From Amoebophrya sp. A120 (taxonomy: Eukaryota > Protista > Dinoflagellata): a stretch of 64,000 nucleotides of DNA. How positions within the stretch are numbered: position 1 is the stretch's first letter; each line of letters starts with the position of its first letter. The position numbers and the translations under genes are program-made. The stretch spans positions 4,408,339 to 4,472,338 of the forward strand of contig CAJINV010000006.1 of assembly GCA_905178155.1 (NCBI GenBank). The letters run 5' to 3'. The notes beneath the pieces are model-generated. The model worked only from the letters and a program-made list of their open reading frames with translations. It searched no databases and was not told the DNA's origin. Below are positions 325-64,000 of this stretch, one piece after another.

Positions 325-3300
325 CTGCTGGCTGCCCAACTACGCATACGCCACGTGTATGAGCTGAAGCGGTTGCCCGGACGAGGTCGGCCCATTGAGT
401 TGCGTAATATCAGTACACGTGCAGAAGGAGGAGGACCTAGCACAGCAGCAGTTGGCCAAGAAGTTGTAGAACAAGGCGAGGGGCAGCAGCAGCAGACGAC
501 CACGCAGCCTCCGACGGACAAGCTCAGCTTATACCATGCGACGAGCGGATATGGGAGTGTCAGGACCGAAATCGACAAAATCGAAAAATTTGTAATGCGT
601 AAAATTATGTAGGGCCCAAAAAAAGGCCTGTGTTGGAGAGGAGGCAAATGAGACCGATTGCAAGCCTGTTTAGCCCTAAACATGTACTGCCAGAGTAGCA
701 TGAGAGGCGCAGTCTTCTTTGCCCAAACAGCATGACAGACTGGATTTTGGTGCTCCCAAAATTTGTCATGCGCCACCTAGAAACTGAGGCTCCAAGTGGT
801 ATCGATTTTATGCATCACAGATTTTTTCGATTTTGTTGATTTCGATCCTGACACCCCCATAGCGGACAAGTAGAACAGGATCTACGACTTCAAGGGATGT
901 TATGGATTGTAAAAATGTCTGGGTCTCCTGGAAGATTCTAAACTTGTAGTGCTGTCTCTGGATTCTAAAAAAATTTGTATTGCATGACCAGCAAAAGGAC
1001 TCCAGTTTGTGCTACGTGGAGAGGGCATTTCTCATGCGGTAGAGGCATCACAAAGTACTCTAAAAATCTGTGATGCTAGGGCATGCATCACAGATCGATC
1101 CTGGATCATTCAAAATATGCATGACAAACCCGGCAATCTTCCAGACCCAGACATTTTTCCATTTGACAGATGTTGAAGAGTGACGATAGCAGAGGTAGTA
1201 CTTCTTCTGCCCACAACGCGTCGGCAGCTAACCTTTTGAAGATGCGGAGGACTTCTAGTACTGCGTCAGCTGCTGAACAAGACCGGGAACAACTACAGCA
1301 TCCTCCTTTGGAGCAGGAACAACGACACGTTCATCCTCTTCACTTTGACCCAGAAAATCGTAAAACTTTGCGACAAAAAAGTGGAGACCACACTATGGAC
1401 GACGAGGACAATAAATTCGTTCCCTGGCAAACCGAATTTCTGGAGCGCATGAGAAACCAAGTTCTACTTTCCGGTGGTTCACCTCGCTCGATGCACACCG
1501 CCGCGGACATTCTTCAGCAAAGACTGCAACTGCAGCAAGCCGATGACCTGCAAGCCGATCTAGATCTTTCGCAGTTGAGCAATTTACACCTTTCGTCCCC
1601 TCCTGCTCCTGCGGGGACGTCGAGCAGGGCTGTTGCATCTTCTCCTGCTCCTGCGGGGACCACGAGCAGGGCTGTTGCCCCGGTGGAGCAGGAGGAAGAT
1701 GAAGATCCTCCTGCAGGTGTTCCTGATAGTCCCATGATCAGGCAGGAACACAAGATGCGTCGGCGACAAAGCGGTAACCTTGGAGAGATATTGCGAGGTC
1801 AGGCTGTTGCTGAGAAGACAGCAAGGGAAATAAAACACGTGCTGCAACGATCGTCGTCGTCCAGCAGGTTGGAAGCAGTTGGAGAAAATGGAACAGAAAG
1901 AATGGACGTTTTTCGAGATACCGCTGCTTTACCAGACGAGTTCGCGCTAGAGCAACATCCTAGAAGTTGTACAACAGCGGAGAGGATGAAAATGGACGAT
2001 ATGATCAGCGGCGCACCAGGAGACTTGAGCGGTCTGATTATACCAGGGGGTCATCGTGGTACAACTGGGCGCGCAGCAGCCTGGATACAACAACCAGTTC
2101 TTCCACCCGACGAATTGCAAAAAGAACTACAGGAGGGACAACAAACTCAGATATGCTGTGTAAAAACGACGTCCCCATCACCATCTTTCCAGAGTTGTCA
2201 TGCAAATCTGCAAGTGCTTGAAATGTTTCTCATGCGAGCTGCCCCATGAGACGAGTTTTCTATATTGTATTTTGGAATTCGAATTTGTGATGCTCGAATC
2301 AGCAAGATCAGTGATGCTGCTCTTCAAACAGGATTACAACTTACAATACTAGGCCAAAGAACAACTTGTCATGCGCAGCAGCTGCCAATAGCAGACGTCT
2401 TGACTCTGGGAAGATGGGGACGGTTTATTTCCTCACAATATCTGGGGCAAGAACTTCTACTGCGCGAAAGTGGTCGTGGCTTTTCGGCCGACGGTCGCGC
2501 TGCTCGGGCGACGTCAAAAGATATTCAGCATGATGTAGAGCAAGTTCTGGACCCAAATTCTACAAGTCAGCACCAGGCCTTCTCCTACTCCGGTGGCGCT
2601 CTGGGCGCAGCAGCAGGACCACCTACCGGACTGAATAGAGGTAGTTCTCAGGATGCTCATGCTGCTCGTGATGAACCGCAGAAAATCACAGACCTAACGG
2701 GAGACTACCGTAGTACCAGCGGACGTGGTCTTGTCAGCCAGTCGAACCTGCTGTGGGCCCGGTTCTCCCCAGATAACTGCTGGAGGCAAATCGTTGTATC
2801 AAATGCAAAAATGTCTGGGTCTGGAAAAGTTCAAACTTGTCATGCAGATTTTCCATGACCCATGAGGTCTGGAATGCGGGACTTAGCATGACAGACTCTG
2901 TGAGGTCTCTGCCATGCCTATCCTGCATGAGAAACTCCCTTCCAACTTGGTCAAAAGTGGACAGCTTTTGGCACTCATGCAACACAGATTTTTGCATGCT
3001 TCAGATTTACCATGACAATTTGCCGCCTTCCAGACCCAGACATTTTTACAGTTGATACGTTGAGAGCGCAAACCAGGACCCGGCTGGCGCTCCTACTTCA
3101 TCCGCTGCAAGAGCCGTCGAGAAGAAAGAGGACACGCAAAACAAGCTGCAAAAACCGGGTCTGCCGAAGATTTTTAAAACTCTGACCGAAGAAAATGTGA
3201 AAATGTGGCAGGAACAAATGATGAAGCACAGCAGCAGCAATTCGGGCAGGGACGATCATGACCAGTACAAGGATATCAAATGCAAATATCGATAGTCTGG

Positions 3301-6240
3301 GCCTGGGAGGATCCGAACTTGTGATGCAGCCTGTTTCGGATCCTACAAAGATCTGTGATGCATAACGTGCAAAGAGGGCATAGCATTTCTCTGTGCCCAC
3401 TTCTCCGAGAAGAGACTCGCCATGCTGAGAGGGCATTTCATCTTATGCAGAACACGACGCATCACCAAGGAGCTGCAGAACCTGTGATGCTAGGCCCTGC
3501 ATTTTTCCAGACGTGGGGGCGCTTGGAAAATAAACTGCATGACAAATCTGGGAATTATCTCCCAGACCCAGACACAACTTTTGCAGTTGATAAAGGAAGA
3601 TCAGCTGCAAAAACAGCTTTGGCAATACAAGCAAGGCGCGGCGGGTGGTAATTATGGCTTCTTGTCAGGAGCACTGCACCCAGAAGACCACGAAGATCCC
3701 TGGACTGCCGCTCTTTTTTCGGAACAACAAGGTCTGACACCGGCGCAAGTAGGAGCGAGTGGAGACGATGAACACCAGCAGCAGGAGGCACAGCGCGATC
3801 GGGCGACTACACGAGGTGAAACTGCAGGAGGACTTCTAAAAGGGTCTACTGTCGTGGGAGGTGCTTTCGCAGGGACATCTTCAATGCAAGCACCGGGGGC
3901 TCCTGCTCCTCCGAGTGCCGTACCACGGGCAGGAAGCTTGTCCGCTTTGGCGCGAGGTGGACCTTTACAACATCAACAATCCCGCCGCGATGTAGCTTTG
4001 GACCCCCGGATTGCGTTCGATACTCGCATAGCAGAAGCGGCTCGACGAGGTATCCTGTGTAAAAACATCCCCACACCAGAGTCAGGATGGGGATTTTGCA
4101 ACACAAGCGTAGGAGTTTTGTGAGTCACGCATGACAAGTTGCACTCCGCAGTGTAGTGCAGGTTAGCAAGTGCAGCCGCATCACAGATTCATCTGCTCAT
4201 CCTGTTCACAGCATCACAAATTCCAAAATACGATTAGAAATGGCTCTCATGGGGATGCGCATTACAAGTCTTCCTGTCTTNCTTCCAGACCCAGACATTT
4301 TTACAGTTGATACGTTGAGAGCGCAAACCAGGACCCGGCTGGCGCTCCTACTTCATCCGCTGCAAGAGCCGTCGAGAAGAAAGAGGACACGCAAAACAAG
4401 CTGCAAAAACCGGGTCTGCCGAAGATTTTTAAAACTCTGACCGAAGAAAATGTGAAAATGTGGCAGGAACAAATGATGAAGCACAGCAGCAGCAATTCGG
4501 GCAGGGACGATCATGACCAGTACAAGGATATCAAATGCAAATATCGATAGTCTGGGCCTGGGAGGATCCGAACTTGTGATGCAGCCTGTTTCGGATCCTA
4601 CAAAGATCTGTGATGCATAACGTGCAAAGAGGGCATAGCATTTCTCTGTGCCCACTTCTCCGAGAAGAGACTCGCCATGCTGAGAGGGCATTTCATCTTA
4701 TGCAGAACACGACGCATCACCAAGGAGCTGCAGAACCTGTGATGCTAGGCCCTGCATTTTTCCAGACGTGGGGGCGCTTGGAAAATAAACTGCATGACAA
4801 ATCTGGGAATTATCTCCCAGACCCAGACACAACTTTTGCAGTTGATAAAGGAAGATCAGCTGCAAAAACAGCTTTGGCAATACAAGCAAGGCGCGGCGGG
4901 TGGTAATTATGGCTTCTTGTCAGGAGCACTGCACCCAGAAGACCACGAAGATCCCTGGACTGCCGCTCTTTTTTCGGAACAACAAGGTCTGACACCGGCG
5001 CAAGTAGGAGCGAGTGGAGACGATGAACACCAGCAGCAGGAGGCACAGCGCGATCGGGCGACTACACGAGGTGAAACTGCAGGAGGACTTCTAAAAGGGT
5101 CTACTGTCGTGGGAGGTGCTTTCGCAGGGACATCTTCAATGCAAGCACCGGGGGCTCCTGCTCCTCCGAGTGCCGTACCACGGGCAGGAAGCTTGTCCGC
5201 TTTGGCGCGAGGTGGACCTTTACAACATCAACAATCCCGCCGCGATGTAGCTTTGGACCCCCGGATTGCGTTCGATACTCGCATAGCAGAAGCGGCTCGA
5301 CGAGGTATCCTGTGTAAAAACATCCCCACACCAGAGTCAGGATGGGGATTTTGCAACACAAGCGTAGGAGTTTTGTGAGTCACGCATGACAAGTTGCACT
5401 CCGCAGTGTAGTGCAGGTTAGCAAGTGCAGCCGCATCACAGATTCATCTGCTCATCCTGTTCACAGCATCACAAATTCCAAAATACGATTAGAAATGGCT
5501 CTCATGGGGATGCGCATTACAAGTCTTCCTGTCTTTGCAAATCTGCACTACGGGGACGTTTTTATTCAGGATACGAGGGGCAGATCACTACGCAGAAGCC
5601 GCAGCAGGAGCAGCTGCACAGCTTGAGCAAGACGATCGGTTATTTCCCCACGACGACCACGACTCCCCTGAGCGGAGACAAGCCGTGGACCCTGGCAGGC
5701 TGAGTTGTATAAGCGATCGGAGCCGCAGCGCCCGGCTGAGGCCAGTGGATCTTGCCAGGGGACGGGGGGTGCCCCCGGGATACCCTGATCCGAGCCCATT
5801 CTTGAAAAGCATGAGCGGCTGCAGTCCGGATATGATGCACTGCACGAGCATGCAAGGAACCCCGCAGCAGCCTGATGGAGCCAGAAATAAATGGTCGTCT
5901 GAACAAGGGTATGAAATGCAAAAATGTCTGGGTCTGGAAGAATGCCAGGTTTGTCATGCATATGTTGCATGACACACTATGCCTGTAATGCATGGCCTAG
6001 CATCGCAGATTTTCATTTGGCTTCCTGATGCGTATTCCGCATGAGAAATGCCCTTCCCGGATAGCGCAAACTGGACTCCTCTTGCTGGTCATGCAATGCA
6101 GAACTTTTTAGAATCCAAAGACAGCATCACAAGTTTGTATTCTTCCAGACCCAGACATTTTTGCATTTCATAAAGGGCTGCAGGCAGGTGGTCTGGAGGG
6201 GCTCTTGCCTTTCAGCTTGCCTAGCGCCGATACTGACTAG
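325..6240 (+). CDS. 5'-partial spliced gene, low-complexity protein of unknown function (8 unique introner introns; 4282-5535 probably assembly duplication)
   Basis: Removing each element plus one 5-bp repeat joins ORF-track frames 148, 1170, 2265, 3539 and 5535 (e.g. ATG T|TG AAG; AAG GA|A GAT); ends LPSADTD-TAG at 6238-6240. No family recognised. Confidence 0.75.
550..861. mobile_element. Introner family E
   Basis: TIR TATGGG.GTGTCAGGA.CGAAATC; DR GCGGA. Confidence 0.9.
901..1168. mobile_element. Introner family A
   Basis: TIR core AAAAATGTCTGGGTCT; DR GATGT. Confidence 0.9.
2152..2440. mobile_element. Introner family C, diverged
   Basis: TAT..ATA ends, degenerate DR TCAGA/TCTGG, frame restored. 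Confidence 0.75.
2797..3057. mobile_element. Introner family A
   Basis: A TIR; DR CGTTG. Confidence 0.9.
3027..5535. repeat. 1.25-kb duplication across N at 4281 (probable assembly overlap)
   Basis: 3027-4280 repeated at 4282-5535; both breakpoints lie mid-introner. Confidence 0.8.
3274..3592. mobile_element. Introner family A (duplicate at 4529-4847)
   Basis: DR AAGGA. Confidence 0.85.
5306..5573. mobile_element. Introner family C (partial duplicate 4051-4280)
   Basis: TIR TATCCTG.GTAAAAAC..CCC; DR CGAGG. Confidence 0.9.
5910..6172. mobile_element. Introner family A
   Basis: DR AAGGG. Confidence 0.9.
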
Positions 6241-9011
6241 AGGTTTAGAAAGATAAGAACTCGACGTGCGGGCGGCTTTTTGGTCGTGTATAGCGCAGCT
6301 ATACTAATGTCTATACGTCTGCTCATCTTCCTAATTTTTGGGGAAGATTTTTTATTCGACACTTTTATTACTGTTTTTTTCAGCCTTGAAAATAAATCGA
6401 GCGTAGTTCATCTTTATGATATTTTTATCACTGGTTTCAAAATAGTACGTAAAATCGCAGAGAACAGTAGAGCTATGACAAGCAGTTTTTTCTTTTTCCA
6501 AAAAATCCAAAAAATGCGGCATCCAATTTTTCCAATATTAATCACATAAACGAGAATGCTCGACCACGTAACCGTGGCGGGGCCACGCAGCTACAAAAGT
6601 CCAAAAAATGAATAACGGGACAACTCGAGGAAGGTAGCGCGTACTTGTTGAGCTACTAAATTTTTTGACGGGAGGACGAGGACGAGATCTGCTTCCGTAT
6701 TAAATGAACAGAAATGGCACAAATGTAGAACGTCAAAAGAGCGCCAGTGCGGCGCTCGTTCTTTTTTTTTACTTTTATTCTCACGCTAGTTTATTGTTTC
6801 TCTTGATTTTTGAAGACTCTGACTCCCCTTTTGCTATCCAAAGCTACTTGATGCTGTGTAAAAGATTTTTTTACACGATCATGTAGCTGTACGACTGTCC
6901 TCGCCTCGCACTATCGACATTTAATGAAGTAACGTGGTTTCCAATTATTCCGTTTCATCTTCAACTTCATGACTATAATATCAGCACGTGAAAACATAAT
7001 TATACGTAGACCAAACTACTTCTACTACAAAATCGGTGACTGAGTTGTATTAAGCTGCGTAAGGCAAGTGCGTCGTGGTAGTCAGTTATACGACGCTGGT
7101 CTTTAACAAGAATGCATCAGTTACAGTATGATCTGCTATCGGCACTACATTCACGATCCGCACTTTTTATCCTTGCCTGTTTCTGCTGCTCTACCTGTAG
7201 CAGGCCGCGTCAAGATGGACGTAGGTTATTTCGTTTTGACTTTGAGTGAGAAATTTATTTTAGCGAGGAGGATGACAGCAGGAAGAAAGAATCGGATGAG
7301 GAGACATTTCTCCTTGCTGTTGTACCTCCGATGAAGGAAGCGAAACTTCGATGAAAGAAGTGATGAAAAAAAATAATTATGATCACTTCAACCTAGTAGG
7401 GCTGGAAGCAGCTATGCGGACAATTGATATCTGATAGCCTTTTTCACGCTATCTCCCCCTGATTTTTGTCCGCCCGCACTAGATGGTCATAATTTAGTTC
7501 TTGAAAGTTCCGCATCCGCACGCACGAGAACACACTATGTCATGGATGACAGCAGCAAAAAGGATAGCACTCCCGCGATTCAATATAAATCTTGCGCCTT
7601 TATTAATATTTGCTGTTGCCGACTGCTGTTATAAGTTACCGTGGTTTAGTGCCACCTTTTCAATTTCTTCTCACTCGCATGATGTGAACATCTCCTCCGC
7701 AAAAAACCGAATACCGACCACGTCTGGTGACCACGGGTAGAAGTAGCTGTTTGTATTATTTCTAAAAGTGAATAGAATACCGACATGTAAATATAGAAAA
7801 CATTTTTTTCATCTTGAATTGTACCGATATTAGAAGTGCGAGGCAGGATAGAACCACGTAAAATATAGAGAGTGATTAGAAGAGATTTTGTGCGACTTTA
7901 ATATTCCACTGCCTGGAAGATGATCTTTTGCGTCAAGACCATGTAGTACCATGTTGTAAAAAAACAAAAAGTTCTAACCGAGTTTCAACGAACTGCCAAA
8001 TATAGCGAACTGACACTTTGACTTTTGAAGATCAACTTCCCGAAGAGCTGCCAGCAGGTATTAGGGGATCGATGAAAAGCAAGCGACATCAGAAAAAAAC
8101 GCCAGCACAACAGTCTTCCCCAGGCCGCTTGTGAATTCTGTAATTTTATTCAAGAAGCAGAGCCACTATCTACAGGCTGTACAACTACAACCGCGAAGGA
8201 ATATAATTACACCGTAGCATAATTTTTACTTCAGTGTAAACAAAGAAAAAGATTTAGAGGACTCACCATTTTTTCGAGCCGGATGTTGAGCAGTTGCTTG
8301 GCATGATACGGACATCGAAATTGAAGCTGCCTTACTGTAAATAGACTTTATAATTTTGCAACAAGACAGAAGGTCACTCGCCAAGGGTCTAGACGAGCAA
8401 AAAGCCGCGAGCTACTGAGACAAGAGCACGAAAATTAGGGGCCCATGTAGTCTGATGCAATGACGATAATGTGACCACGACATTAGATTTTTGTGGTATG
8501 AAGAAAACTTATTTGGATTTTTTTATCCGGAATTAATGTGTATTTACTAATATCGTTGTAAATTCCAATTACATGATTCGGCGAGGCTACTGTGTTTTTA
8601 GTCTCAACCAGCTTCCATCAAAATCTAATGAGGCGCAGTAGACCTCCACTTCTATGTGTATGTCTACAACTTTTTGATCATTGTGTTGTCGACTGCGTGG
8701 TAAAGACAAACAAAAAACTTTTTGTTCAGGTACTTAAATGCGACCCGCTCCACAAGGTCGGTTGTCCGCAGAATTATTGGACCACGGTGCCAGGCCCGTT
8801 TCTTTTTTGACCCTTTTTGGTCAAAAAGAACCAGCCACAGCGAATCCTTATCGGAGCACTGAGTAAGAAGTACTTGGAGACATAGTATGAACCAAGAGGC
8901 GACGGATATTTATGATTAGCTATGATACCATATGACAGTGCACAACTCCCCGTCCCCCTGATTAATATTTACATTGCTTGACTTCCGGGTTCTGGTACGG
9001 CATACCCCCGG

Positions 9012-9188
9012 CGACAGGTGACCTCGACAGGTGACCTCGACAGGTGACCCCGACAGGTGACCTCGACAGGTGACATCGACAGGTGGCCTCGACAGGTGAC
9101 CTTGACAGGTGACCTTGACAGGTGACCTGGACAGGTGACCTGGACAGGTGACCTGGACAGGTGGCCGCGACAGGTGACGACGACAGGC
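9012..9188. repeat. 13-bp tandem repeat CGACAGGTGACCT, ~13 copies
   Basis: Directly visible. Confidence 0.95.
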
Positions 9189-9478
9189 GGGGCGAGAGGA
9201 TAAATCACAGGCGAGGTCAACGCCTGCGCTCATGTCGTTCTTGACGTGAAAAGCAAATATTTGCGACACAGAAAATGAAAAAGATAAAAGCGCAAAAAAA
9301 AAAACTGCGACGTCGCAGAAAATGGAAAATATCAAAGCGCAAAAACACAAAATGCCCCCACACAGAAAGAAGTTTTTGCGCTGCCATGCAAAAATGAAAA
9401 AGTGCGTATCTCTGCAATGCACGCCCAGGAGACGGCTTATATATGATGACGAGGCAGCACCTATTTCATCCTTTTGCC

Positions 9479-10679
9479 AGTAGCGCTTCGCGCACTAAGC
9501 CACCATGCGCGCGCCTGGTGTGAGGTGAAGGGCGGACGCTGTCCGCCCCGATGGCGAACACCCTTCCCCCACTAGCGTTTCGCGCACTAAGCCACTATGC
9601 GCGCGCCTGGTGTGAGGCGAGGGGCGGACGCTGTCCGCCCCGATGGCGAACACCCTTCCCCCACTAGCGTTTCGCGCACTAAGCCACTATGCGCGCGCCT
9701 GGTGTGAGGCGAGGGGCGGACGCTGTCCGCCCCGATGGCGAACACCCTTCCCCCACTAGCGTTTCGCGCACTAAGCCACTATGCGCGCGCCTGGTGTGAG
9801 GCGAGGGGCGGACGCTGTCCGCCCCGATGGCGAACACCCTTCCCCCACTAGCGTTTCGCGCACTAAGCCACTATGCGCGCGCCTGGTGTGAGGCGAGGGG
9901 CGGACGCTGTCCGCCCCGATGGCGAACACCCTTCCCCCACTAGCGTTTCGCGCACTAAGCCACTATGCGCGCGCCTGGTGTGAGGCGAGGGGCGGACGCT
10001 GTCCGCCCCGATGGCGAACACCCTTCCCCCACTAGCGTTTCGCGCACTAAGCCACTATGCGCGCGCCTGGTGTGAGGCGAGGGGCGGACGCTGTCCGCCC
10101 CGATGGCGAACACCCTTCCCCCACTAGCGTTTCGCGCACTAAGCCACTATGCGCGCGCCTGGTGTGAGGCGAGGGGCGGACGCTGTCCGCCCCGATGGCG
10201 AACACCCTTCCCCCACTAGCGTTTCGCGCACTAAGCCACTATGCGCGCGCCTGGTGTGAGGCGAGGGGCGGACGCTGTCCGCCCCGATGGCGAACACCCT
10301 TCCCCCACTAGCGTTTCGCGCACTAAGCCACTATGCGCGCGCCTGGTGTGAGGCGAGGGGCGGACGCTGTCCGCCCCGATGGCGAACACCCTTCCCCCAC
10401 TAGCGTTTCGCGCACTAAGCCACTATGCGCGCGCCTGGTGTGAGGCGAGGGGCGGACGCTGTCCGCCCCGATGGCGAACACCCTTCCCCCACTAGCGTTT
10501 CGCGCACTAAGCCACTATGCGCGCGCCTGGTGTGAGGCGAGGGGCGGACGCTGTCCGCCCCGATGGCGAACACCCTTCCCCCACTAGCGTTTCGCGCACT
10601 AAGCCACTATGCGCGCGTCTGGTGTGAGGCGAGGGGCGGACGCTGTCCGCCCCGATGGCGAACACCCTTCCCCCACTAG
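9479..10679. repeat. 92-bp tandem repeat, 13 near-identical copies
   Basis: ACTAGC recurs at 9571, 9663, 9755 etc.; the unit contains hairpin GGGGCGGAC-gct-GTCCGCCCC. Confidence 0.95.
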
Positions 10680-12120
10680 AGCCACTAAGGACGGGCACAA
10701 GGCCCCAGCGTGGGGACCCTGTCCCCACGCGTGGGTCTTGTTTGTCATGCAAAATACTCAGTCCACCCTTTGCCTCTTGGCACTGTTTGCATGACAAGTT
10801 CTGGTAGCCCAAATAGCACTACACTCCACGTGCAAATTTGTCATGCAGAACCGGCATTCTTGCTGATCCTGATGCTTGTATTGCCGTTCATGCTATACAA
10901 ATGAGGGGGAGGGGGAGTTGTGCACTCTCATATACCAAGTACGATCCAAGAGGCGACGGATATTTATGATTAGCTACGATACCAAGTATGCATCAAACTA
11001 CAGTGCGACGAGTCTTAATTCTACTAAAACAATCCGGCTCTGATGCTGGAGTAAATTATACTTAAAACACCTCCGAAGAACTTGTAGTGTGGTTAGGGAG
11101 GAGGTGGATCCATCGTGATTTACAACTTTTCTATCGAAGCGGTTATGAGGCGGAAACCATAGGAAGTCCGGATCGAGGCACTGACTAACTACTTGGAAAC
11201 ATATATCAAANTAGAGCCACTAAGGACGGGCACAAGGCCCCAGCGTGGGGACCCTGTCCCCACGCGTGGGTCTTGTTTGTCATGCAAAATACTCAGTCCA
11301 CCCTTTGCCTCTTGGCACTGTTTGCATGACAAGTTCTGGTAGCCCAAATAGCACTACACTCCACGTGCAAATTTGTCATGCAGAACCGGCATTCTTGCTG
11401 ATCCTGATGCTTGTATTGCCGTTCATGCTATACAAATGAGGGGGAGGGGGAGTTGTGCACTCTCATATACCAAGTACGATCCAAGAGGCGACGGATATTT
11501 ATGATTAGCTACGATACCAAGTATGCATCAAACTACAGTGCGACGAGTCTTAATTCTACTAAAACAATCCGGCTCTGATGCTGGAGTAACTTATACTTAA
11601 AACACCTCTTAAGAACTTGTAGTGTGGTTAGGGAGGAGGTGGATCCATCGTGATTTACAACTTTTCTATCGAAGCGGTTATGAGGCGGAAACCATAGGAA
11701 GTCCGGATCGAGGCACTGACTAACTACTTGGAAACATATATCAAATGCAAAAATGTCTGGGTCTGGAAGAATGCAAGTTTGTCATGCTTGTCTGGCATGA
11801 CTCGAGAATCTGTGTTGCATAGGCACGAAAGAGCCCTCTTTACTGTCACGCGAAAAGGCAGTTTGCCTTTGCCATGCGGAATACTCAAGACATGGCAGCC
11901 ACAAAATTTGTCATGCTTATCTGCGTACCGCGGCGCGTCTATCATTCACTTTTAACATTACAAGTTTCCAGACCCAGACATGTTTCCATTTGATAACATA
12001 GTATGATCCAAGAGGCGACGGATNCCGCGGCGCGTCTATCATTCACTTTTAACATTACAAGTTTCCAGACCCAGACATGTTTCCATTTGATAACATAGTA
12101 TGATCCAAGAGGCGACGGAT
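10677..12120. repeat. Duplications across Ns at 11211 (534 bp) and 12024 (96 bp), probable assembly overlaps
   Basis: 10677-11210 ~ 11212-11745 (a few SNPs); 11928-12023 = 12025-12120. Confidence 0.7.
11739..11995. mobile_element. Introner family A
   Basis: DR ACATA. Confidence 0.9.
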
Positions 12121-13564: not shown

Positions 13565-16500
13565 ATGAGATCTACGGCGACGAGGGTTGTTCCCGCGGCA
13601 GTCTCGAGGGCGGGGTCTCTGGCTGTTTTCTTTGATCTGTTCTTTACTATTACATTCACAACGCCGAAAAGCTCCTGCATTGTTCACGCCGCTTCCGCTT
13701 CCGACACGACAACTTCTTCCACCAGCACACCCGCCGCCCGTCGCGCCAAGCCCAAGAAGTTGGGGAACGCGGTTCTGGCGCCGAAAGCCGGCAGCGAGAG
13801 GGAAAAGCAGGAAGAACTTAGAAAGGAATTTGCACAGAAAGAAAAGGAGGAAGAGAAGCAAAAGCTTTCTATCTGGTTAGAAACCCACGGGGAAGCCCAG
13901 AAAGCGGCGTTTCAGCTATTGTGAGGAAAAATCCCCCCTCCCCATATCGAAAAGGTACGTCGCAGAAAATTTGCAATGCTGATGTGCGACCACAAATCAC
14001 CTCTGTCTTGCAAGAAGGCAATTCCACAGACAACCGCCGCACTATGCAGGTGGTTTGTGATGCTGTTGGGCCTACAGCGCAGACGTTTCTCATGCTAAGA
14101 GCCTAGCCCAAAACCTACCTACTCAGGCTGAGTATGGGCCTGCAGTCCTCTCCAGCAAGACAAATCTGATTTGTGTACGCAAATCCAGCATCGCAGACCT
14201 CGCTTTGATGTGGGGTGGGGGGATTTTTGATTTTGATATCAGCTCGTGACGGAAAGGGAGTATTTGGACCGGTTCCGCGCGCCCGGGGCGAAAGGGACGG
14301 AGAAGATTTTGAAGGATTTAACAAAGCATGTGAGAACAAGAAGTCGAGGACGACAGGACCACAGACAGCAGGAGCAGATAACGCAGGTAGACCAGATCCT
14401 GCGGAGGCAGCAGGAGGCAGAGTTTTACGCAGAGCTGGCGAATCTGAAACAGTCCGGGCGGGAAGTGGTGTACAAGGAACAAGAGAAAATGTTTCAAACA
14501 TGTTTTCAAGCGGTCAAGGAACTCCACGATACATCAAAAATCAAATCTTCGGCGAGCCCGGGCTGGATCCAGCTGATGACGGAATTGGCAGAAGTTCACG
14601 AGCGGAAGCAGCTGTCGGTTGGGCTGTTGAAGAGGAGGACGTCTTCTGCAACTACTATTGCCACGAAGATGAACGACAGTGAAGATCGTGCTGGAAACAA
14701 GGTGGAAATAAAGCGTACTACTCGTAGCGGTAGTCGCAAGAAAGACAGAAGAACCACGAGTCCAGCCAGAGGGTCGCTCTCTCGTCGGGCAAGAACGTCT
14801 TCCCAAGAACGGGACATAAGCACACATTATTTATTTCAGCAGTGGAAAAAATACGACGATGAAGAGGCTCTTCTTGAAGGTGAGGCAGCTACATCCTATT
14901 ACCACCAGAGCCAGTACCTGCTACAGAAAATCGTGCAAATTTATGCTCCTAGTCCAACCCTGCGAACCGGTTCAACTACGCCTTCGCCCGCCTCACTGGA
15001 GTATTACAACAGTACCATAGCAGGAGGAGCGCACAATAAACCACGGACATCCACTATTCCATTCGTATTCGAAGACACTAGCACCTCAGGCGCCAAGAAA
15101 GAGAGTTCTGGCAACCATCAAAACGCTTTGCTAGAGTCGTTTTTGCAGAAATCGCAGTGCCGGGAGTACTTTCAGCTAATGGAAATTCCGGGGAGAACCA
15201 AATCCGAATGGAACAAGGTGAAACAATTGATAGTCGGAGCGGGTTTGTGCACCGCCCCGGACGTCCGGAGGAATTCCTTTTCATCATCTGTGGAAGACGG
15301 TAATGCTTCTACTCCGTTGAATGAATCCCCGGAGAGAGTGGCGGATAAGAAGCGATACGTGCAGGAGAAAAGACGGCTGTATTTCAAGCTTATCGGAGTA
15401 GAACAAGGGGAGCTCAATGAGGCTGCAGATGAGCCTATGACGGACGTCGCGGCCACGGGTGCTGGGACTGTTGCTGCCTCGGCGAACAAAGGATTTTTGC
15501 TGAAGGAGGGACAGGGTAGTGGAGCAGATCACCAAGAACCGGGAAAAGATGTCAAAGGGCTAGAAGTGCTATCTCCTCTGCGGCGAGGTTCTTTTTCTTC
15601 CTCCCGAGCTGCGACCTCTGTACCATCGTCCTCCAGGAGCCCCAGTACGCGGTATGCATCGTATGTGAGCAGTTGCACTTCGCGGCGCAATAGCTGCAGC
15701 ATCGATGACGACGTTTTCATGACAGGCAGCTTGAGCAGCGGAGAGCAAGGTGCAATATCAGCTGGCTCACGGTTCGGGAGCCATGCGAGCTTTCAGAGCC
15801 TGCTTTTGCAGGAAGATCCGATCAGTCGTCCGGCTCTCAGGAGTCCCTCGCCGGCGCTCTCTGCAGCATTGGGAGCCGTTAGTACTGTCGAGGATGAGGA
15901 TAAGGACCATGATCTTGTAGTTCACGGTCCTTATACAACCGACAACAGGTGTACTAGCCGTGTCCCGTATGTTCCAAGCGAGGACGCAGCGGTACACCTT
16001 CTGCCTTCAGCCAAGCCGTCTTCGTCATTTGCAGTGCATATGGACGACGACGAGGTGCCGCAAAGCAAAAAGCATGCTCCCACCACCAGAATTGCAACGC
16101 CGCCGTTGTTTCCCGTGGCAGAAGAGGGCGGGGGTTCTATTGGTGCTGTTGTTCTTCCCATGGCCGCCAGCGCAGCAAGTTCTTGTACTACTATGCCGAC
16201 AAAACAAATTAATGACGCGCGTGATGTTATCCTATTTAAAAAACGTCCCCACCCCATAGTTGTAATGCAAATCTGCATGCTGAAAATGTTTCTCATGCGG
16301 AGCCCCATGAGAAGCATTTTCCAATCGTGTTTTGAAATTTGTCATGCTCCAATCAGCATGGTATGCTAGATCTGTGATGCTGCTGAGCTAGCTCAAACAG
16401 CACTACACTACGAAATTGATTGAGTGCGCCTTTAAGTACAGTGTAGCATGACAAATTTTCCGAGCGCTTTCTGATGCTTAGCGCGCAATACAAACTGCGA

Positions 16501-17127
16501 TGCTTCATGGCGAAACTGTGGCGCTCTTGTTGCTTTTATGCAATACAGATTTTTAAGGAATGGTGGACACGCAACACAGATTCAACCTTTCCAGACCCAG
16601 ACATATTTGCGATGCATATGCTGTTCGAAGTCCTCATGCGCACGGTTGGAAAGGACTATGACAAGATTACTACAACAAGAGCTCCTACCTCTGAACATGA
16701 GCCGAAAAAAACACACCAGCACTCGGAAGTGAAAGAAGCCGAGCGAGTGTTGCTGCAAGTGCTGCAGACTTGCGTCGATTTGAACCCTTTTTTGAAGTTG
16801 TACGGGGAAGAAAGTGTGGCGAAAGTGCTGCGGTTCTTCGTGAATATGAAGACACAGATGAAAGGTGGTCGTGAGGACGAAAATCTACGAGAGGGCCCTC
16901 GTGCTGACCACCCTGTTCAAGAAGTACGTGCTGTCAGTACGAGTCACGCGACCTCCTCGTCCTCGCACGCTACTACTCTGACAACAACTTCATCTCCGGA
17001 TGTTCCTGCGACAACTTCTTCTTCAACTTCTAGAGGGGCTGGGCCTGGGGAAACTAGTACAACCAGAAATAACTACCGTCGCACCTGGGCCAGCCTACTT
17101 GACACAGTGCGGTTTGATCGCATCTAG
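13565..17127 (+). CDS. Spliced gene, Ser-rich protein of unknown function
   Basis: ATG 13565; removing 13917-14238 plus TCAGC joins FQ-LVTERE into the 707-aa frame. The last junction (chimeric element 16228-16618) does not restore frame by the simple rule, so the final exon is tentative. Confidence 0.65.
13917..14238. mobile_element. Introner family B
   Basis: DR TCAGC. Confidence 0.9.
16228..16618. mobile_element. Chimeric introner (C left end, A right end)
   Basis: Mismatched TIRs, no matching DR (GATGT/TGCTG). Confidence 0.7.
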
Positions 17128-20282: not shown

Positions 20283-20297
20283 CCATTTTGGCTCAAG
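20283..20297 (+). other. 15-nt match to the 3' part of the dinoflagellate spliced leader
   Basis: CCATTTTGGCTCAAG vs DinoSL DCCGTAGCCATTTTGGCTCAAG; not followed by GT, so not an SL RNA gene. Confidence 0.45.
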
Positions 20298-24459: not shown

Positions 24460-25621
24460 GGCGCTGCCCTGTTGCAACATCTTGTGGGATGTCGCCGGGG
24501 TGGACCTGTGCGTACGTATTTGCTCTGTGGTCGGCAGATGAATTCTTTTGCGTAACTCTGGCACGCCGTCTACTGTTTTGCGCTAGTGAAGAGGTGCGCG
24601 CCGCTTGGCTGTCTAGTACACTCTATCTGCGAGGGCTGGTGTTCATTTCTTCTTCTTGGCCTGTGGTGGCAGTTTTTCCTCGATCGGTTTTCGTCCGCTC
24701 GGGTTTTGGTGTTTTCACTTTCTACTACCAGCCACTTGTCGGTCCGGCGTCGTCGTCACGCCCTCGTCTATGGGGCGCACCGGTTGTCCCAAATTCATCG
24801 TCTGGTCGCTAGCGTCGTGACGGGTTCTTTGGGCTGCTTCGGCGTATCGGGCCTCCGCCGGTGGGGTAGGTGCTTCCAGGGCGCCTCCTTGTACGACGCA
24901 GTGGGAGATGCTCCCATCGAGCGATCATCCAAAGGGTGATCCTTCCGCTGTGACTGAATAAAATGTATGCCCGGGCAGTAGCAGGCTAGCGAGCCTGTGA
25001 GTCTAGGCTGAGGCTGGTCGGGCGGTATTTTATGTCTGTCCAAGCCCAGCCCTTCTCCGGTAGCCAGGGGCTTGATGATTGTGAGGGTGAACCTCGTCCC
25101 GTTCTGGGTCGAAGTTTGTTTCCCCGCCCACCCACCCGGTTTTGTTTCCGCAGTTACTTCGGATGGGTCGCTAGGTCTCGCGCCGCTCCAGTTTCTTTTG
25201 GGGTAGGACAGAGGCCGAAATATGTCTTCCACAGCGAGGGTAGGTGCTTCCAGGGCGCCTCCTTGTGCGACGCAGTGGGAGATGCTCCCATCGAGCGATC
25301 ATCCAAAGGGTGATCCTTCCGCTGTGACTGAATAAAATAATAGTTGTGACACGGAGGGACGACGTCTGCTCGACGTCCCTCTGTTTAATCTTTTCTCTAT
25401 TTAATCGCGAAGTGAGGTGGAAGTATCGAAATCGATCTGCTTGAAGATGGTTGCCAGCGAGCAGAACAAGGTAGATTTTGAGTTCCATACTTCGTTTCGC
25501 AATTATCTTTTGGGGTGAGTAGGTAGGAAGAGGAACAACATCAAAAATTTAAGATTTTTACGCTCTTAGCATTCAGCACTTCGTAGTTGTTGAAAGAAGC
25601 TACAATTCTTCAGACTCCAAG

Positions 25622-54936: not shown

Positions 54937-57900
54937 ATGTTTCAATCACGTGGATTGGGTGGAGCGGGCATTTCTCATTCTCTGCCCTGCGTGCTGGCGA
55001 AGACACTTCTACTGTTTGTGGCAGTAGTCGTGCATCAATCTGCGATTTCAGAAGTCCACGCGTCCGAAGCCGGGCGGAAATACAGCGAAGATTACATCAC
55101 GGATCTCTCCTATCCAAGAAAAAAACTTTGTAAGTGTAAATCTGTGATGCGAAGCATGTAACACACTTACACTTGTCATGCTAGGCAACCATGAAGTCCT
55201 CTTTCATATGTGTTTTCACGTACTGGCTGTGCGTGACAGGCTTTCTTTGTAATGCGGAACAGATTTGGCATGCTGTCACCTCAAGACACGTACACCAACA
55301 CAATTTTTTTCTTGCGATATCTCCTGGTGCCGGAGCTTGTCCCACCACTTCAAGTGGGAACGGTTGTTGCAATTGCAACGAAACTGCGAGCTGACGGTCG
55401 TAAAAAGAGAACAACAACTTCTATCAAGCGGCAGCTATAGCAATTTTGTTGGTGTGGAAGAATTGGAACTTTTTCTCTGTAGCGACAACGCAGATTGTTC
55501 TACCAATCCTTCCGGTTCAACATCAGCATCAGCATCGCCTTCTTCCCCTGGAGATGAAAAGAAAGCGACAGCAGATCATGCAGACCAACCGGATACCGCT
55601 TTCTCGAAAGCAGCCGACGCAGTAGAATTTGCGCTGGAGTGGCAATGGGCTCGTCCTATCCTGAGTAAAAACGCACCCACACCAGAGTTGTAGTGCAGAT
55701 TTGCAAAGACTGGAAGACTTGTAATGCGCATCCCCATGAGAGCCATTTCCAGTCGTGTTTTGGAATTTGTGATGCTGTGAACAGGATGAGGAGGTGGATT
55801 TGTTATGCGGATTCCCTTGCTAAACTGCACTACAATACAGCCTGCAAGTTGTCATGCGTGACTCACAAAACTCCTAGGTTTGTGTTGCAAAATCCCCACC
55901 CTGACTCTGGTGTGGGTACGTTTTTACTCAGGATACGTCCCACGGAGTATCTATGTGCGAACGGCTTGGTCACAGCGACGCTGATACTTCTGCATGAGGA
56001 TGTGAAAAACCGGTTTTTAGCCACCTTTGCGCAAGATGTTGACACCAACGCGGACGATGAAACTCGCACTACGAATGCAAAAAATTATTCTATCCTCGAC
56101 TTGCACAAGGCCCTGCAAATCGAAGCGCTGTTGAAGCGGATGAGCGAGAAGGTTTTTCTTCTGGACGCGAGCTTGTGGGGCGGAAAGTCGTTCATGGTGA
56201 AAGAATATTTTCAGAAATACAGCCGGTTACTAGAGAGAGGAGGACCACAGAACGACCACAACCCTGAGGAGATGAACAGTAGACATCCGATGTCACAACT
56301 AAAAAACAGTATTGTCGAACCTGATGAAAATATCGCCGCTGAGATGGAGAAAATGCGTGCGCAGCCGGTGACGTTTCTGGTGCCCGAATTGACGGAAGAT
56401 TTGGCTTTGCATCTATTGGAACATTTTGCGAACGAGCATTTGATATTGACTTTTAAGCCGGTTGAGCAAAAGAATTATAGAGAAGAACCTGCTTCTCTCG
56501 TCGATACTGGCGAGGACAAGAGCCGTGGTGTCAGCAAGCAGGACCAGGAGCAGGCTGAAGTCGATGCTGCGAACGGGGAGAACAATGATCTAGCCGTCAC
56601 TGACGATTTGGTGACAAACCGGAAAAATAAATCCGCGGACGAACAAGAAGCAGTGGACAATAAGTGGCACTATGAACTTATGAACTGCAAAAGTATCGTA
56701 CTCGTATAAATGCATGACAAATTCCCTCAGCATGTTGAGAAACAAAATTTGTAATGCGGATCTACCTAGAGAAAAGAATTTGTAATGCAAGACTTGCATT
56801 TGTACGAGTACGATACTTTTGCACAGGATAGAACTGATGGACATGAAGTTAAAAAACTGGGTCTTCTTTGACCATATGCATTGCAAATGTGTCCTCTGGG
56901 TGTGTGGAAACTTGTGATGCTTGTACATGTGTGAGAAGCTACTGACTCCAATACGCAGCCACGCATGAGAACAAATTTATCAGCGGTTATGTGGTGCGCA
57001 ACCTGCAGGAGAAATCGCGTTTTTGCATGACAGAGGGTTGTTGCTAGTCCACAACATGCATCTTCACAGAGTTCAGGATCAGGGGTATGGATGCGAGTTC
57101 AGCAATACAAGTCTCGCACTCTGCTTCCAGACCCAGATCGATATTTGCAGTGCATAGACCACCCCGCGGACCAGCAACACGCACAGGAGGAGCAGACAAT
57201 GATTGGCACGCTCGTGAATGGGATGGCGGAGAATGTGCCCACCCCACTCGCTTTCGTAGTGCTGAACAAAAATTTCCTGCCCAAAAACCGCCAAAGCTTG
57301 CTGAAGATGATCCGGTACGCGACCTTGGAGCAGGACAACGTGCAAGTGGTTGGTACCGGATTCGCGAAAATCGGGAATGTTTTGAACGACTGGTGCTACG
57401 TTTTGGAGTTGAAGGATTGGCGGATGAAGTTTTCCCCTTGGTACAGAGAGTCTTTACTCGCGGTGAATACCCAGTTGAAACAGCAACTGCAGATGATGGG
57501 GTTATCAAATGCAAAAATGTCTGGGTCTGGGAGAGGCACTCTGTTTTTGCATGAGACAGAAGGTCTGGCATGGAAGCCCTAGCATCACAGGTTTCGAAAA
57601 GGTTCCGCAATGCCTAATCCGCATGACAAGTCCCCCACTTTGGTGGCAGAAAGTGGGCAACTTTTGCTGTCTATGCATGAGAGATTTGTGTGTGCTGTGA
57701 AATGCGCATCACAAGTTTGCACACTTCCAGACCCAGACATATTTGCAATGCATAGGGGTCGCTGCAGAACCAAAGAGTTGATGGAGATCACGCAGGAGCT
57801 GCGTCCAGTCAGTCTGAAATGCAGCAGCAACTAATGCAGGAGTTTATCCAAGAAAACATCCTGGGCACTTCCATCCGTGGATCCTGGTTTGAAGGCGTGC

Positions 57901-60398
57901 AGGACGACCAAAATAACCCCGACGGCACTTCTACGCAGAATCTTCAAATGATATCCTTCCCAGCGAAGGTCTGTGACACCACCAGCCCCTCTTTTCTGAT
58001 CCGCACAGAAGTTTTGAAACGAATCCCGCTGGTATCCTGAGCAAAACCGGGCTGGCCCACACCCCATAGTCAAGATAGGAAATCCGCTAGACAAATCGGC
58101 AAGCTTTGGCTGTTGCGCATGACGAATTTAAGGTCGGGGCGTAGTGGTCTTTCGCTATTGTACCAGCATCACAGACCTCGCGTATCATTCTGATTCGAGC
58201 GTCACAAAAAGCGAAACACCACTAGGGAATGCTTCTCATCATGGGTCTCCGCATGAGAAACATTTTACGCATGCAGAATCGCATTACAACTCTGGCGGCG
58301 TGGGGACGACGTTTTTACACAGCATAGCTGGATCCCTCGAATATCAAACACGGGGATTTACTCGCGCTGGAATACTTTATCCGGCTGAAAAAACAACTAC
58401 CAGTACCGGTGAAAGTGGCGAGCGTAGTAGACGCCGAGATGGGATATCTCGTTGGGGAGGGCAAGGAAACAGCACCTGGTGCCAGCGAAGTACTAGCGGA
58501 GCGGAGTGAGCTACATCAACCAGTAGATGAGAGTACAGTTTCTAAGTGTACGACTTGCGTTGACGCGGAGACCTTCATAGGAGACGACGGGTTCTCAACA
58601 TCGGGAACAAGCGCAACAACGAATTATACACGACGACCCGCCTCCCATCCTACTAGTAGTGCAACCTCCAAGAACTCGTCCCCAAGAATGATAATTACAG
58701 CCGCCTCTAGTAGAACATCAAGTTCTGCTATGCTCTACGGCTCTTCCATCTTCCTGACCGACAATCCAAGTAAAATCAAACAACTGGAATCTCTCTGGCG
58801 TGCCCTCGCGGGGAAGAAATTTGCCGCTGTCACCGACCTACGCGAAGTGGAATTGCCGCACTTTGCGCAGGGGGAAATCGGGTTTGGGAGCCTGGAGTCC
58901 CGGTTTCAGGAGCAGAGAGAAATGATGTTGGCGGAGCAGGAAAGAATAAAAACGCCAACCAGTGCAGCTATTCCAGCAAATAATAAAATACAAACAACCC
59001 AGCACCACCGTTCCTTCCACCAGGTCACCACGGTTCTGAATTTCGGGTGCAACCTTTCTATTGCGAATTGTGAAATTCCGCTGTGGGTTTACCGTGGTTG
59101 GTCAGCTCCGCCGTGTTGCAGGCGGACGCTGCGCCGGCTGCTGTTCTACATCACAGACCTCTTCGACAAAGTCGGGATCCGCTATTTTTTGACCGACGGG
59201 GGATTGTTAGGGGGATTGAAGTACCATTCTCTAATTCGTTGGGACGCAGACATTGACTTGCAAATCCACGGAGAGGATTTCGACAAGTATCTGCTTGGGA
59301 AAGCAGCATTACAAACTGGGACTAGCATCGGGTTTCCGCATGACAAATCAAGTAATCTTACCACAGCATCAACGACCTTGGAAGAGCAGATCACGAAAGA
59401 TGGTTTTTTTTTGCGCAAACATCAGACCTCGAAGACACAGTTTCTGCTGCAAGTATCCTGTGCAAAAGTATCGTACTCGTAGTAATCGCAGTCATGCATT
59501 ACAAATTTCTTTCTCAAGTTAAATCCGCATTACTCTCACGCTGGGGAAATTTGTCATGCGATTTATACTAGCACGATGCTTTTGCATTTCATAGCAAGCG
59601 AACGTGAACAACTACCTTTTGATTGAGCTGAATAAGCGGGATTACGACCAATGGTTCTTCAACGACGACGACGATGAAAATGTAGATGCTGTGGACATAA
59701 AACAAGGCGACGTCAAGACCAGCGAGGTCGTGGAGAAAAGAACTAAATTACCCGTGGAGGGCAAGCTGTTCGATGTAGTGTACAAACCAGCAGGGCGAAG
59801 AACAGGTTATCAAATGTAAAAATGTCTGGGTCTGGAAGAATGCCAGACTTGTCATGCAGGTTTTCCATGACTCATGAAGTCTGGTATGTAGGACATAGCA
59901 TGACAGATTCTGTGAGAGTTCTATCGTGCCTATCCTGCATGAGAAATTGCCGCTCGATTAGGTCAAAAGTGGGCAGCTTTTGGTAATCACGCAACACAGA
60001 TTTTTACATGATTCAGATTTAGCATGACAAGCTGCTTTGTTCCAGACCCAGACATTTTTGCATTCCATACAGGTAGAAATACACCAACACCAACTGAGAA
60101 GAACGACGAGCAAGATCATCATCTGCACGAGACAACAACGTCCTCACCCGAAGATGCAAGAAGTGCAACTACATCTACTTCAGAGACCACGACGTTGAGA
60201 GGCCATCCACTTCGAGCAGATACCTTCACACCCCTCAAAGCGGTTCGAAACTGGTATGGCTACGGGTTTCTCGCCAATCGGCTACGGCACGTGCCCGAAT
60301 GGGAGGAAGCGGAGAACCCCTTGTTCTGTGCAACGCCCTATCACCACAACTGCGCGGATTTGCTGGCCAGCGCTGCGGTGCCCAGGGTTGTGTTTTGA
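54937..60398 (+). CDS. FKRP: Fukutin-related protein-like (FKRP/LicD family) phosphotransferase, ~1180 aa, 8 introners
   Basis: FGC..C...WSAPPCCRRTLR..GIRYFLTDGGLLGGLKYHSLIRWDADIDL matches the FKRP zinc loop and LicD WDxDxD motif; N-terminal signal anchor; all 8 junctions restore frame. The start codon is inferred. Confidence 0.85.
55111..55319. mobile_element. Introner family F
   Basis: DR TCTCC. Confidence 0.9.
55657..55935. mobile_element. Introner family C
   Basis: DR CGTCC. Confidence 0.9.
56679..56830. mobile_element. Introner family D
   Basis: DR GAACT. Confidence 0.9.
56875..57156. mobile_element. Introner family A, diverged
   Basis: DR GACCA. Confidence 0.85.
57503..57754. mobile_element. 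Introner family A
   Basis: DR GGGGT. Confidence 0.9.
58033..58326. mobile_element. Introner family C
   Basis: DR GCTGG. Confidence 0.85.
59454..59593. mobile_element. Introner family D
   Basis: DR GCAAG. Confidence 0.9.
59808..60069. mobile_element. Introner family A
   Basis: DR CAGGT. Confidence 0.9.
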
Positions 60399-63044: not shown

Positions 63045-64000
63045 ATGCATCGGTTCGATACGTTTTCGAAGCCGCTACAGGAGTTTCAGGTGAAAACGAA
63101 AATTGGCGGCTACCTCTCCGTAACGTCAGTATGCATGATCGTGTACCTGCTGCTGTCGGAGGTGATGTTCTTCCTGGAGCTCGAGCAGAAAGACGAGATG
63201 GTGATAGACTTGTATCAACTGCAAAAGTGTCTGGGTCTGGAAGATTGCAACTTGTCATGCTGTTTTTGGACTCTAAAAAAATTTGTATTGCATGACCAGC
63301 AAGAAGAGGGGTGCAATGTGTGCTACACGGACAGGGCATTTCTCATGCGGAAGGTGCATCAGGAGGGCCTTTAAAAGTCTGCGAAGATGCTAGGTCATGC
63401 ATTACAGGCATCACGGGTCATGAGAAATATGCATGACAAATCTTGCATTCTTCCAGACCCAGACATTTTTGCATTTGATAACTTGAACCAAGACACAAAA
63501 ACCTTCAAGATGCACCTGGATTTGTGGGTAAGTACTAAGTAATTTGATTGATGTTGCAATGCGTAGCAAGAATAGTATACCCTGTGATGCATGAAATCGC
63601 ATGAAGTGAATTTTTTGTCCAAAAAAAAATCCACAAGAATTTGTTCTACAAATACACAGCTTCCAGAACTTCCTTGCGCGGTTGTCGCTTTGAATTTGGT
63701 ACACGTCAAGAACCAGGATAACGTAATGCACGTCGGGCACACGATATCGCAGGAAAAAAGTTTCACAGTTACACATTTGTACGTGGATTCAGCATCACAA
63801 ACTTGCGCAGCCTGACAGAGAAAATTTGCAATGCAGAAATCATAAAGGCAAAACACACATGAAACGAGGCTCGCAAGCATCTTGCGCATTCCAGAGGTTG
63901 TTTATCTTGCGTGCTTTGCAACACAATGTGTAGCTGTAACGTTTTTTCTTTGCATACACGATCTTGAAGCAGAGGTGGGGCAAGGACCCGAAGTCAAGAG
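63045..64000 (+). CDS. ERGIC3: ERGIC3/Erv46-family ER-Golgi intermediate compartment protein, 3'-partial
   Basis: Spliced MHRFDTFSKPLQEFQVKTKIGGYLS-TM-EMVIDL|NQDTKTFKMHLDLW|LPELPCAVVALNLVHVKNQDNVMHVGHT|ILKQR matches the ERGIC N-terminal pattern; 2 introners and 1 GT-AG intron. The paralogue assignment is less certain than the family. Confidence 0.85.
63213..63480. mobile_element. Introner family A
   Basis: DR ACTTG. Confidence 0.92.
63528..63659 (+). other. Canonical GT-AG spliceosomal intron
   Basis: GTAAGT donor, ACAG acceptor; joins DLW to LPELPC in frame. Confidence 0.85.
63745..63956. mobile_element. Introner family F
   Basis: DR CACGA. Confidence 0.9.

Follow-up and report, generated by a model that had tools for sequence, protein, structure and literature searches.

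A short motif on a 10.4-bp lattice is shared by otherwise dissimilar introner-type elements of Amoebophrya sp. A120

In a 64,000-nucleotide stretch of Amoebophrya sp. A120 (contig CAJINV010000006.1, positions 4,408,339 to 4,472,338; hereafter the window), long reading frames on the + strand are interrupted by inserts of 140-330 bp that resemble miniature inverted-repeat transposable elements (MITEs) and match the published A120 introner type (PMC7789003). We found that these inserts, which fall into several otherwise dissimilar families, share a short internal motif, and that its sites lie on a 10.4-bp lattice, which is new here; the motif itself, its enrichment and its spread across families were confirmed as real. 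In our judgment it is fairly likely that the motif is a double-stranded DNA site recognised by a single transposition protein common to the families, which is probably a DDE transposase of the integrase type or a partner of it. Sixty-four elements were delimited in the window by their inverted ends, 56 automatically and 8 by hand, after six false calls and the duplicated or partial element pieces beside three Ns had been set aside. Elements start with TAT, carry a run of A at positions 11-14 and end with ATA; the family letters A, B, C, E, F, G, H, I and J, with one E/A hybrid, are our own naming. One metagenome scan seeded with a family A end brought in 141 further loci (737 kb), in which family A ends are biased, having been the seed, and the other families are unbiased. 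A finder requiring TAT ends, arm similarity and an exact target-site duplication (TSD) called 338 elements in these loci and none in 234 kb of shuffled DNA; one 6.2-kb call spanning several elements was dropped, leaving 337. Of two scans against viral contigs, one yielded 6 loci and the other 2; each locus was a simple repeat or a coding match by chance, and none matched the elements by BLAST. The window and fetched elements contain 15 clusters of 3-104 members each.

The strict motif GCATSACARA, counted on either strand, occurred 95 times in the 17,381 bp of the 64 elements, compared with a mean of 0.5 and a maximum of 4 in 200 dinucleotide shuffles of the same elements, once in 21,150 bp of exon and nowhere in 18,559 bp of intergenic DNA or in the 4,000 bp of a tyrosine-recombinase (YR) element; 8 further copies lay in the 2,910 bp of set-aside pieces. 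An earlier note on this DNA had described the motif as enriched in the elements and rare elsewhere, and as present in several copies in unrelated-looking families. Both descriptions hold, GCATNACAR being present in 64/64 elements and in at least two copies in 53 of them. The core of the motif as worded there was borne out, but the true word is broader, namely GCAWNASAR, mostly followed by A/G and T; it was found in all 64 elements, and the broad motif in 333/337 fetched elements, including all clusters absent from the window except one single element. The described inward orientation of the outermost copies stood in part: they point inward at 96/128 ends, and at both ends in 36/64 elements, but family E is polar, with nearly all copies in one direction, and in family H the outermost copies point outward.

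To characterize conservation, we scored six groups by leave-one-out, one copy defining the sites and the remaining copies being compared. In all six groups the motif columns (identity 0.74-0.91) exceeded the other interior (0.58-0.76), whereas base 5 of the motif stayed at background level (0.48-0.72); the terminal inverted repeats (TIRs) gave 0.63-0.91. Neither outcome that the earlier note had named as refuting was seen, since the motif is enriched and better conserved than the remaining interior. In any one family the TIRs and the motif's fixed letters show about equal conservation, so the earlier idea of a constant motif amid diversifying TIRs is right between families and wrong within them. 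BLAST between families returned almost only 15-25-bp matches around the motif. Unmasked family profiles cross-matched at 13-40 bits; with the motif masked, which lowers profile sensitivity, cross-matches were left only within A, within B, between G and cluster 9, and in one G-to-E case, indicating that the motif accounts for most cross-family similarity. All families might nevertheless stem from one ancestor, with the motif a mere relic. Several of them share a layout with an inward site at 37 or 46-47 bp and an outward site 48-50 bp beyond, and the unmasked cross-matches, together with the sensitivity lost on masking, make old homology possible. We consider the relic explanation highly improbable and largely refuted by the differential conservation, as the motif is kept within families while spacers diverge, and the first-site distances cluster near 36-37, 44-48 and 57-59 bp, in steps of about one helical turn. 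Because the motif is kept in this way, selection on it is needed whatever the ancestry, and common ancestry can hold together with function.

The earlier note had proposed a check for spacing periodicity, and a period was found. A same-orientation pair 30-33 bp apart was present in 12 of the 14 clusters (of 15) that have two same-orientation sites, where the null gave 3.1 clusters and its best 4-bp window 6.6 (p 0.0002). Inward sites were phased from the element end at 10.4-10.6 bp (scan p ~0.002), while outward sites showed no phasing from the end in the 15 clusters; in the window families alone, after the period scan, the terminal phase was weak (p 0.03 and 0.11). We then fitted the distances between adjacent sites to a single period, with a single offset for pairs of opposite orientation, in four sets. 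The first took one cluster from each lineage, the second used alternative representatives, the third was restricted to fetched elements, and the fourth comprised the four clusters that the window lacks. The best period was 10.4 bp and the best offset 6-7 bp in 4/4 sets; under nulls of random site placement, which take no account of descent, this period was reached by 0/150 scans in three sets and with p 0.04 in the four window-absent clusters. Opposite-orientation pairs by themselves also fit 10.4 bp. Such a period fits B-DNA, whereas a single strand requires no phasing. A period of 10.2-10.5 bp is also that of wrapped DNA, and element lengths cluster near 150, 210-235, 255-280 and 305-322 bp, so that the lattice might position or exclude nucleosomes or the dinoflagellate/viral nucleoprotein DVNP, favouring copying or tolerance of the inserts; we regard this as very unlikely, as the signal consists of a single specific 9-mer whose letters are invariant, and not of a dinucleotide wave.

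The elements are removed from what are probably transcripts. Contigs of X4, X5 and X8, which represent one sample and whose RNA status is the tool's guess (probable RNA), skip elements, and contigs of X1 run across element-exon borders. At 12 directly read junctions the element and 5 nt are missing, and 8 further junctions, inferred from letter counts between the listed pieces, agree. The cut falls after TSD base 4, as fixed by two imperfect TSDs and compatible with four others. Skipped copies of families A and F occur in either orientation; for family E copies in reverse orientation and for element K, introduced below, which are not among the listed contig pieces, removal is judged solely from restoration of the open reading frame (ORF). 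The open frame of the host gene at 25553-46731 (Table 1) is shortened if any single one of its 43 elements is retained. Element K, which lies in this gene and serves as an internal control, has TAT ends and no motif match, although each TIR holds a look-alike that is longer by one base; taking K out restores the host ORF. That motif-free K must leave the frame suggests that splicing does not need the motif, and its having the same ends and TSD length suggests that insertion is possible without the motif as well. In the E/A hybrid, restoring the frame requires a cut displaced by one base from the usual position; should it be spliced, this element shows how little end matching is required. The 18 nt between two elements at 38543-38560 form a micro-exon that is retained in the contigs. 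Raw RNA reads of X10 and X11 fell solely on repeats that derive from other copies and covered no exon, and are uninformative on splicing here; X9 showed element fragments and, among the rows listed, no usable empty sites.

Removal from RNA raises the alternative that the motif acts in RNA, where it could be recognised by a guide RNA or a splicing protein, or could lengthen the hairpin through base pairing between inverted copies. Besides the precise removal itself, predicted folding is in line with this, motif bases being paired at 0.73 compared with 0.59 for the other interior, and motif-with-motif pairing averaging 0.29. However, in family E the latter is 0.03; this family has nearly no inverted partner, yet it occurs in genes in both orientations, and a retained copy breaks the frame. 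Facing terminal copies are complementary at base 5 in 5/28 pairs, fewer than the 10.3 obtained with shuffled partners, the helical period is needless for a single strand, and an Rfam scan of the window gave 0 matches. In transcripts the motif would appear 98 times in one orientation and 83 times in the other (p 0.30), revealing no strand bias. A guide RNA fits poorly because strand bias is absent, both orientations are removed, base-5 complementarity is low and motif-free K is removed too; altogether we hold an RNA signal to be improbable. The words of RBFOX, ApiAP2 and TALE-homeodomain proteins were considered as well and dropped, given that the motif tolerates any letter at position 5 and is used in either orientation.

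For the timing of selection, 535 copies were called by profile, and the TSD rate was taken from the 506 with at most two mismatches, 29 being left out. Between the two TSD halves 5.9% of sites are mismatched, and across the 535 copies the fixed letters of the motif deviate from the consensus at 5.9-8.4%. Between close pairs, in four strata, the fixed letters changed at 0.51, 0.66, 0.41 and 0.33 of the spacer rate, where the ceilings on the post-insertion share (twice the TSD rate divided by spacer divergence) were 0.66, 0.93, 0.49 and 0.90; context-corrected rates were similar. Allowing for the exonic part of TSD change, three of the four strata fit about neutral decay of the motif after insertion, whereas TAT changed at 0.08-0.28 of the spacer rate and was protected in all four.

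The fourth stratum bears on a different explanation, in which the lattice is read by a host protein, of DNA-binding or chromatin type, that marks inserts for co-transcriptional removal and may also help copying. Helical phasing without strand bias fits any reader of double-stranded DNA, one of the four strata shows motif protection beyond post-insertion decay, and U1 was undetected in these parasites according to the text of PMC7789003. The motif is also in excess outside called elements (84 matches compared with a mean of 27 and a maximum of 70 for letter-permuted controls, about 3 times commoner), some matches lying in uncalled families and some in AT-rich GT..AG stretches. It occurs in a GT-AG intron of the window and in a few GT..AG-bounded stretches of locus L030. 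On the other hand, K lies in the coding frame and must be removed although it has no motif, three strata fit neutral decay, and windows behind GTAAG, GTGAG and GTAGG contain the motif no more often than those behind control pentamers (1-3%). Ab initio GT-AG introns contained the motif in 8/151 predictions and 81/2,000 controls, the finder being unreliable. We therefore regard a host reader as rather unlikely.

The GT..AG-bounded stretches that carry the motif and have no TIRs are window 63528-63660 and L030 12690-12830, 13195-13290 and 13590-13715; they may be decayed introners turned canonical introns. At window 59288-59380, just after a LicD match, two motif copies lie 32 bp apart in an open frame with a TAT start and weak matches to element profiles (E ~1e-4 in a tiny database), and this segment may be an element remnant converted to exon.

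The simplest reading is one protein of a transposition complex, because the motif is base-specific, strand-blind, helix-phased and common to families with the same ends and TSD length. Several protein subunits would bind sites on one face of the helix and join both element ends, which would then be cut and inserted with a stagger of 5 bp. A single protein would act on all families, so that word and spacing persist as the spacers and inner TIRs drift. The TAT...ATA ends and the stagger resemble those of integrase-type enzymes. Removal from RNA would be a separate step depending on the TAT ends and the hairpin rather than on the motif, with the 5' cut lying 1 nt before TAT and the 3' cut 4 nt beyond ATA. 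That one partner, protein or RNA, binds the motif is what we infer from sequence; a common site for one trans-acting factor, as the earlier note had proposed, is supported because the fixed letters are conserved with base 5 free, masked similarity is low and the 10.4-bp spacing is shared. Among the factors it had considered, a DNA-binding transposition protein fits best, and the guide RNA is the part that fared poorly.

Several observations weigh against such a protein. No transposase was found among 17 window ORFs compared with Pfam, or in the 737 kb of loci by two short integrase-motif patterns, and neither the window nor the loci yielded a cognate autonomous element. Farhat et al., in the text of PMC7789003, found no transposase in A120 and ruled out general mobilisation by one. 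K was inserted with the same ends and TSD length and yet is motif-free. Same-orientation spacings other than 30-33 bp did not fit 10.4 bp (p 0.51 and 0.19). The motif excess outside called elements and the predicted pairing of motif bases point the same way. The low rate in the fourth stratum, that of non-A pairs at 85-90% (0.33 against a ceiling of 0.90), suggests selection after insertion, and in non-A close pairs inner TIR bases are about neutral (0.95) whereas the motif is not (0.66). A broader possibility is that one DNA-binding protein reads a phased code in tens of thousands of inserts, driving their copying and flagging their precise removal from RNA in place of U1-type recognition in this lineage; this we consider unlikely.

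Among the automatically called window elements with full flanks (n=55), the 5-bp TSD was exact in 48 and had one mismatch in 4 and two in 3; in the set of 535 copies called without a TSD criterion it was exact in 387. At ends located by the TSD alone, TAT was read at 452/502, and A at positions 11-14 in 83-93%. TIRs of the motif families are ~16-30 bp long. The elements are short, have TIRs and TSDs and contain no transposase ORF, as MITEs do, and they share with A120-type introners the TAT-starting inverted repeat, the direct repeat at the borders, removal at non-canonical sites and membership in repeated families. Their repeated, conserved short sites near both ends with set spacing resemble those of a subterminal transposase-binding array. 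Strand in Table 1 is the orientation relative to an arbitrary family reference.

Table 1. Elements and host gene in the window (positions of the whole stretch)
Feature	Positions	Strand	Remark
Family B element	3..324	+	
Family I element	550..861	+	TSD GCGGA
Family A1 element	901..1168	-	one end is TGT
Family E element	2152..2440	-	polar motif array
Family A1 element	2797..3057	+	
Family A element, divergent	3274..3592	.	second copy 4529-4847 beside an N, not counted
Family E element	5306..5573	+	partial repeat 4051-4280 not counted
Family A1 element	5910..6172	+	
2-kb element, family G ends	8931..10932	.	TSD TACCA; not counted; motif copies at right end only
Family A2 element	11739..11995	-	outside long ORFs
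Family B element	13917..14238	-	
E/A hybrid	16228..16618	.	9 motif copies; family E left half, family A right half, without matching TSD
Host gene	25553..46731	+	one open frame of 2,831 codons after removing 43 elements and 5 nt each
Family C element	25853..26157	-	
Family H element	27211..27372	+	
Family A element	27428..27696	+	
Family C element	28150..28454	+	
Family G element	28827..29105	-	
Family B element	29349..29664	+	
Family A2 element	30504..30759	+	6 motif copies
Family B element	31000..31306	-	
Family E element	31595..31874	+	
Family A element	31916..32592	.	~400 bp internal insertion
Element K, 978 bp	32942..33919	.	TAT ends, 61-bp TIR, TSD TACAC, motif-free; internal control
Family B element	34060..34386	+	
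Family A1 element	34469..34732	+	
Family A2 element	34918..35169	+	
Family E element	35320..35576	+	right end ATG; end placed by ORF restoration
Family A1 element	35648..35910	+	
Family J element	36003..36259	.	inward sites 57-58 bp from either end
Family F element	36359..36569	+	
Family E element	36623..36931	-	
Family F element	36998..37222	+	
Family E element	37278..37549	-	
Family I element	37612..37918	-	
Family A1 element	37955..38216	+	motif centres 46, 95, 118, 134, 188, 219 bp from left end
Family G element	38340..38542	+	18 nt before next element
Family A1 element	38561..38826	+	
Family F element	38880..39097	+	imperfect TSD
Family C element	39233..39538	+	imperfect TSD
Family A1 element	39583..39848	+	
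Family A1 element	39977..40240	-	skipped in contig X4
Family E element	40708..41190	+	~200 extra bp in left part
Family A1 element	41252..41527	-	
Family H element	41592..41743	-	
Family A2 element	41957..42214	-	skipped in contigs X5, X8
Family A1 element	42296..42568	-	skipped in X5
Family A1 element	42705..42969	-	skipped in X4, X5
Family A1 element	43151..43413	-	skipped in X4
Family B element	43683..44011	+	skipped in X4
Family F element	44056..44271	-	skipped in X4
Family A2 element	44314..44567	+	imperfect TSD fixes cut after TSD base 4
Family F element	44690..44921	+	skipped in X4
Family H element	45259..45413	-	skipped in X4
Family G element	45644..45872	+	imperfect TSD fixes cut after TSD base 4
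Family F element	46186..46408	+	skipped in X4
Family A1 element	48520..48784	-	
Family F element	55111..55319	+	
Family E element	55657..55935	-	
Family H element	56679..56830	+	
Family A element, divergent	56875..57156	.	
Family A element	57503..57754	+	without left inward site
Family E element	58033..58326	+	
Family H element	59454..59593	-	
Family A1 element	59808..60069	+	
Family A1 element	63213..63480	-	
Family F element	63745..63956	-	

The 2-kb element with family G ends contains a tandem array rich in GC as well as short CGACAGGTGA-type repeats, and its flank is itself repeated, the repeat also hosting the element at 11739. Another large element, of 1.1 kb and with a new end type (L025 505-1608), carries its motif pairs, spaced 32 and 33 bp, at a single end. 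Three family A elements (L069 7990-8961, L051 3862-4492 and window 31916-32592) are broken by insertions of 370-700 bp that have 13-19-bp direct repeats at their flanks, one of them also an A-rich end, and resemble insertions of non-LTR (long terminal repeat) elements; the direct repeat includes the motif in two of the three. Between close family A copies, TIR positions 4-10 differ at 1.5-2.1 times the spacer rate, as if end variants had been swapped. Elsewhere in the window, repeats at 3030-5535, 10680-11470 and 11930-12092 flank single Ns (4281, 11211 and 12024) and are probably assembly overlaps. The YR/DIRS-like element at 21340-25340 has ORFs at 22051-23286 and 23530-24459 (weak CCCH finger match), no Pfam recombinase match at E 0.01 and no copy of the narrow motif. 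GC-rich intergenic stretches at 19240-20350, 49100-52400, 60900-62300 and 47500-47900 contain inverted repeats and have open frames on either strand, with no Pfam match among the ORFs tested.

How these introners move and splice is the question left by the paper that described them, which reported no transposase, no U1 and undefined borders. One conserved word on a helical lattice would imply one shared DNA-binding machine for many families, and the motif offers a bait with ready point-mutant controls for isolating the protein and a signature for the autonomous element. The rule that the element and 5 nt leave together, with a fixed cut, permits exact intron annotation and separates what splicing needs (the TAT ends) from what copying needs.

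Introners and subterminal site arrays are already known. The A120 introners of Farhat et al. (2021) are described in the text of PMC7789003 as repeated non-canonical introns with variable direct repeats of 3-5 nt and undefined borders; like the elements here, their inverted repeat is TAT, ~7 variable bases and a run of at least 3 A, and they have no internal transposase. In contrast to that description, the TSD here is uniformly 5 bp, the cut follows base 4 at the two junctions able to fix it, and a motif lattice is shared. In the text passages covered, the literature on Amoebophrya, Syndiniales and dinoflagellate introners makes no mention of an internal motif common to families, of a lattice or of a fixed cut. 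A120 family 38 (Gozashti et al. 2025), as presented in the text of PMC12130899, is likewise a TIR DNA element with a 5-bp TSD and TA/TA termini that acts as an intron, but is ~808 bp long with ORFs similar to Copia/Gypsy integrase regions, whereas the present elements of 110-330 bp have no such ORFs. Ginger2/Tdd elements (Bao et al. 2010; text of PMC2836005) are a candidate class with an integrase-like transposase, in which Tdd-4 and Tdd-5 alone make 5-bp TSDs as here, the others 4-bp; Ginger ends are TGTNR with TIRs of ~40-300 bp, unlike TAT and ~16-30 bp here (61 bp in K), and TGT was read at just 2/502 of our ends. Euglenid non-conventional introns, according to the text of PMC11282704, also have a TIR hairpin that is cut a few bases beyond the stem, and junctions with TSD-like repeats, but their CAG/CTG stem pairing at +4..6 and -8..-6 is absent here, where the stem starts TAT/ATA at +2 and -5. 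Finally, arrays of subterminal sites bind transposase in hAT (Herves, PMC3143072) and Tn7-like elements (PMC8649781); in the text of both papers, as here, a short site distinct from the TIR is repeated near both ends, unequally on left and right. In those systems the site is family-specific and binding was demonstrated, whereas here the site is common to about nine lineages, fills the whole element and is a putative binding site.

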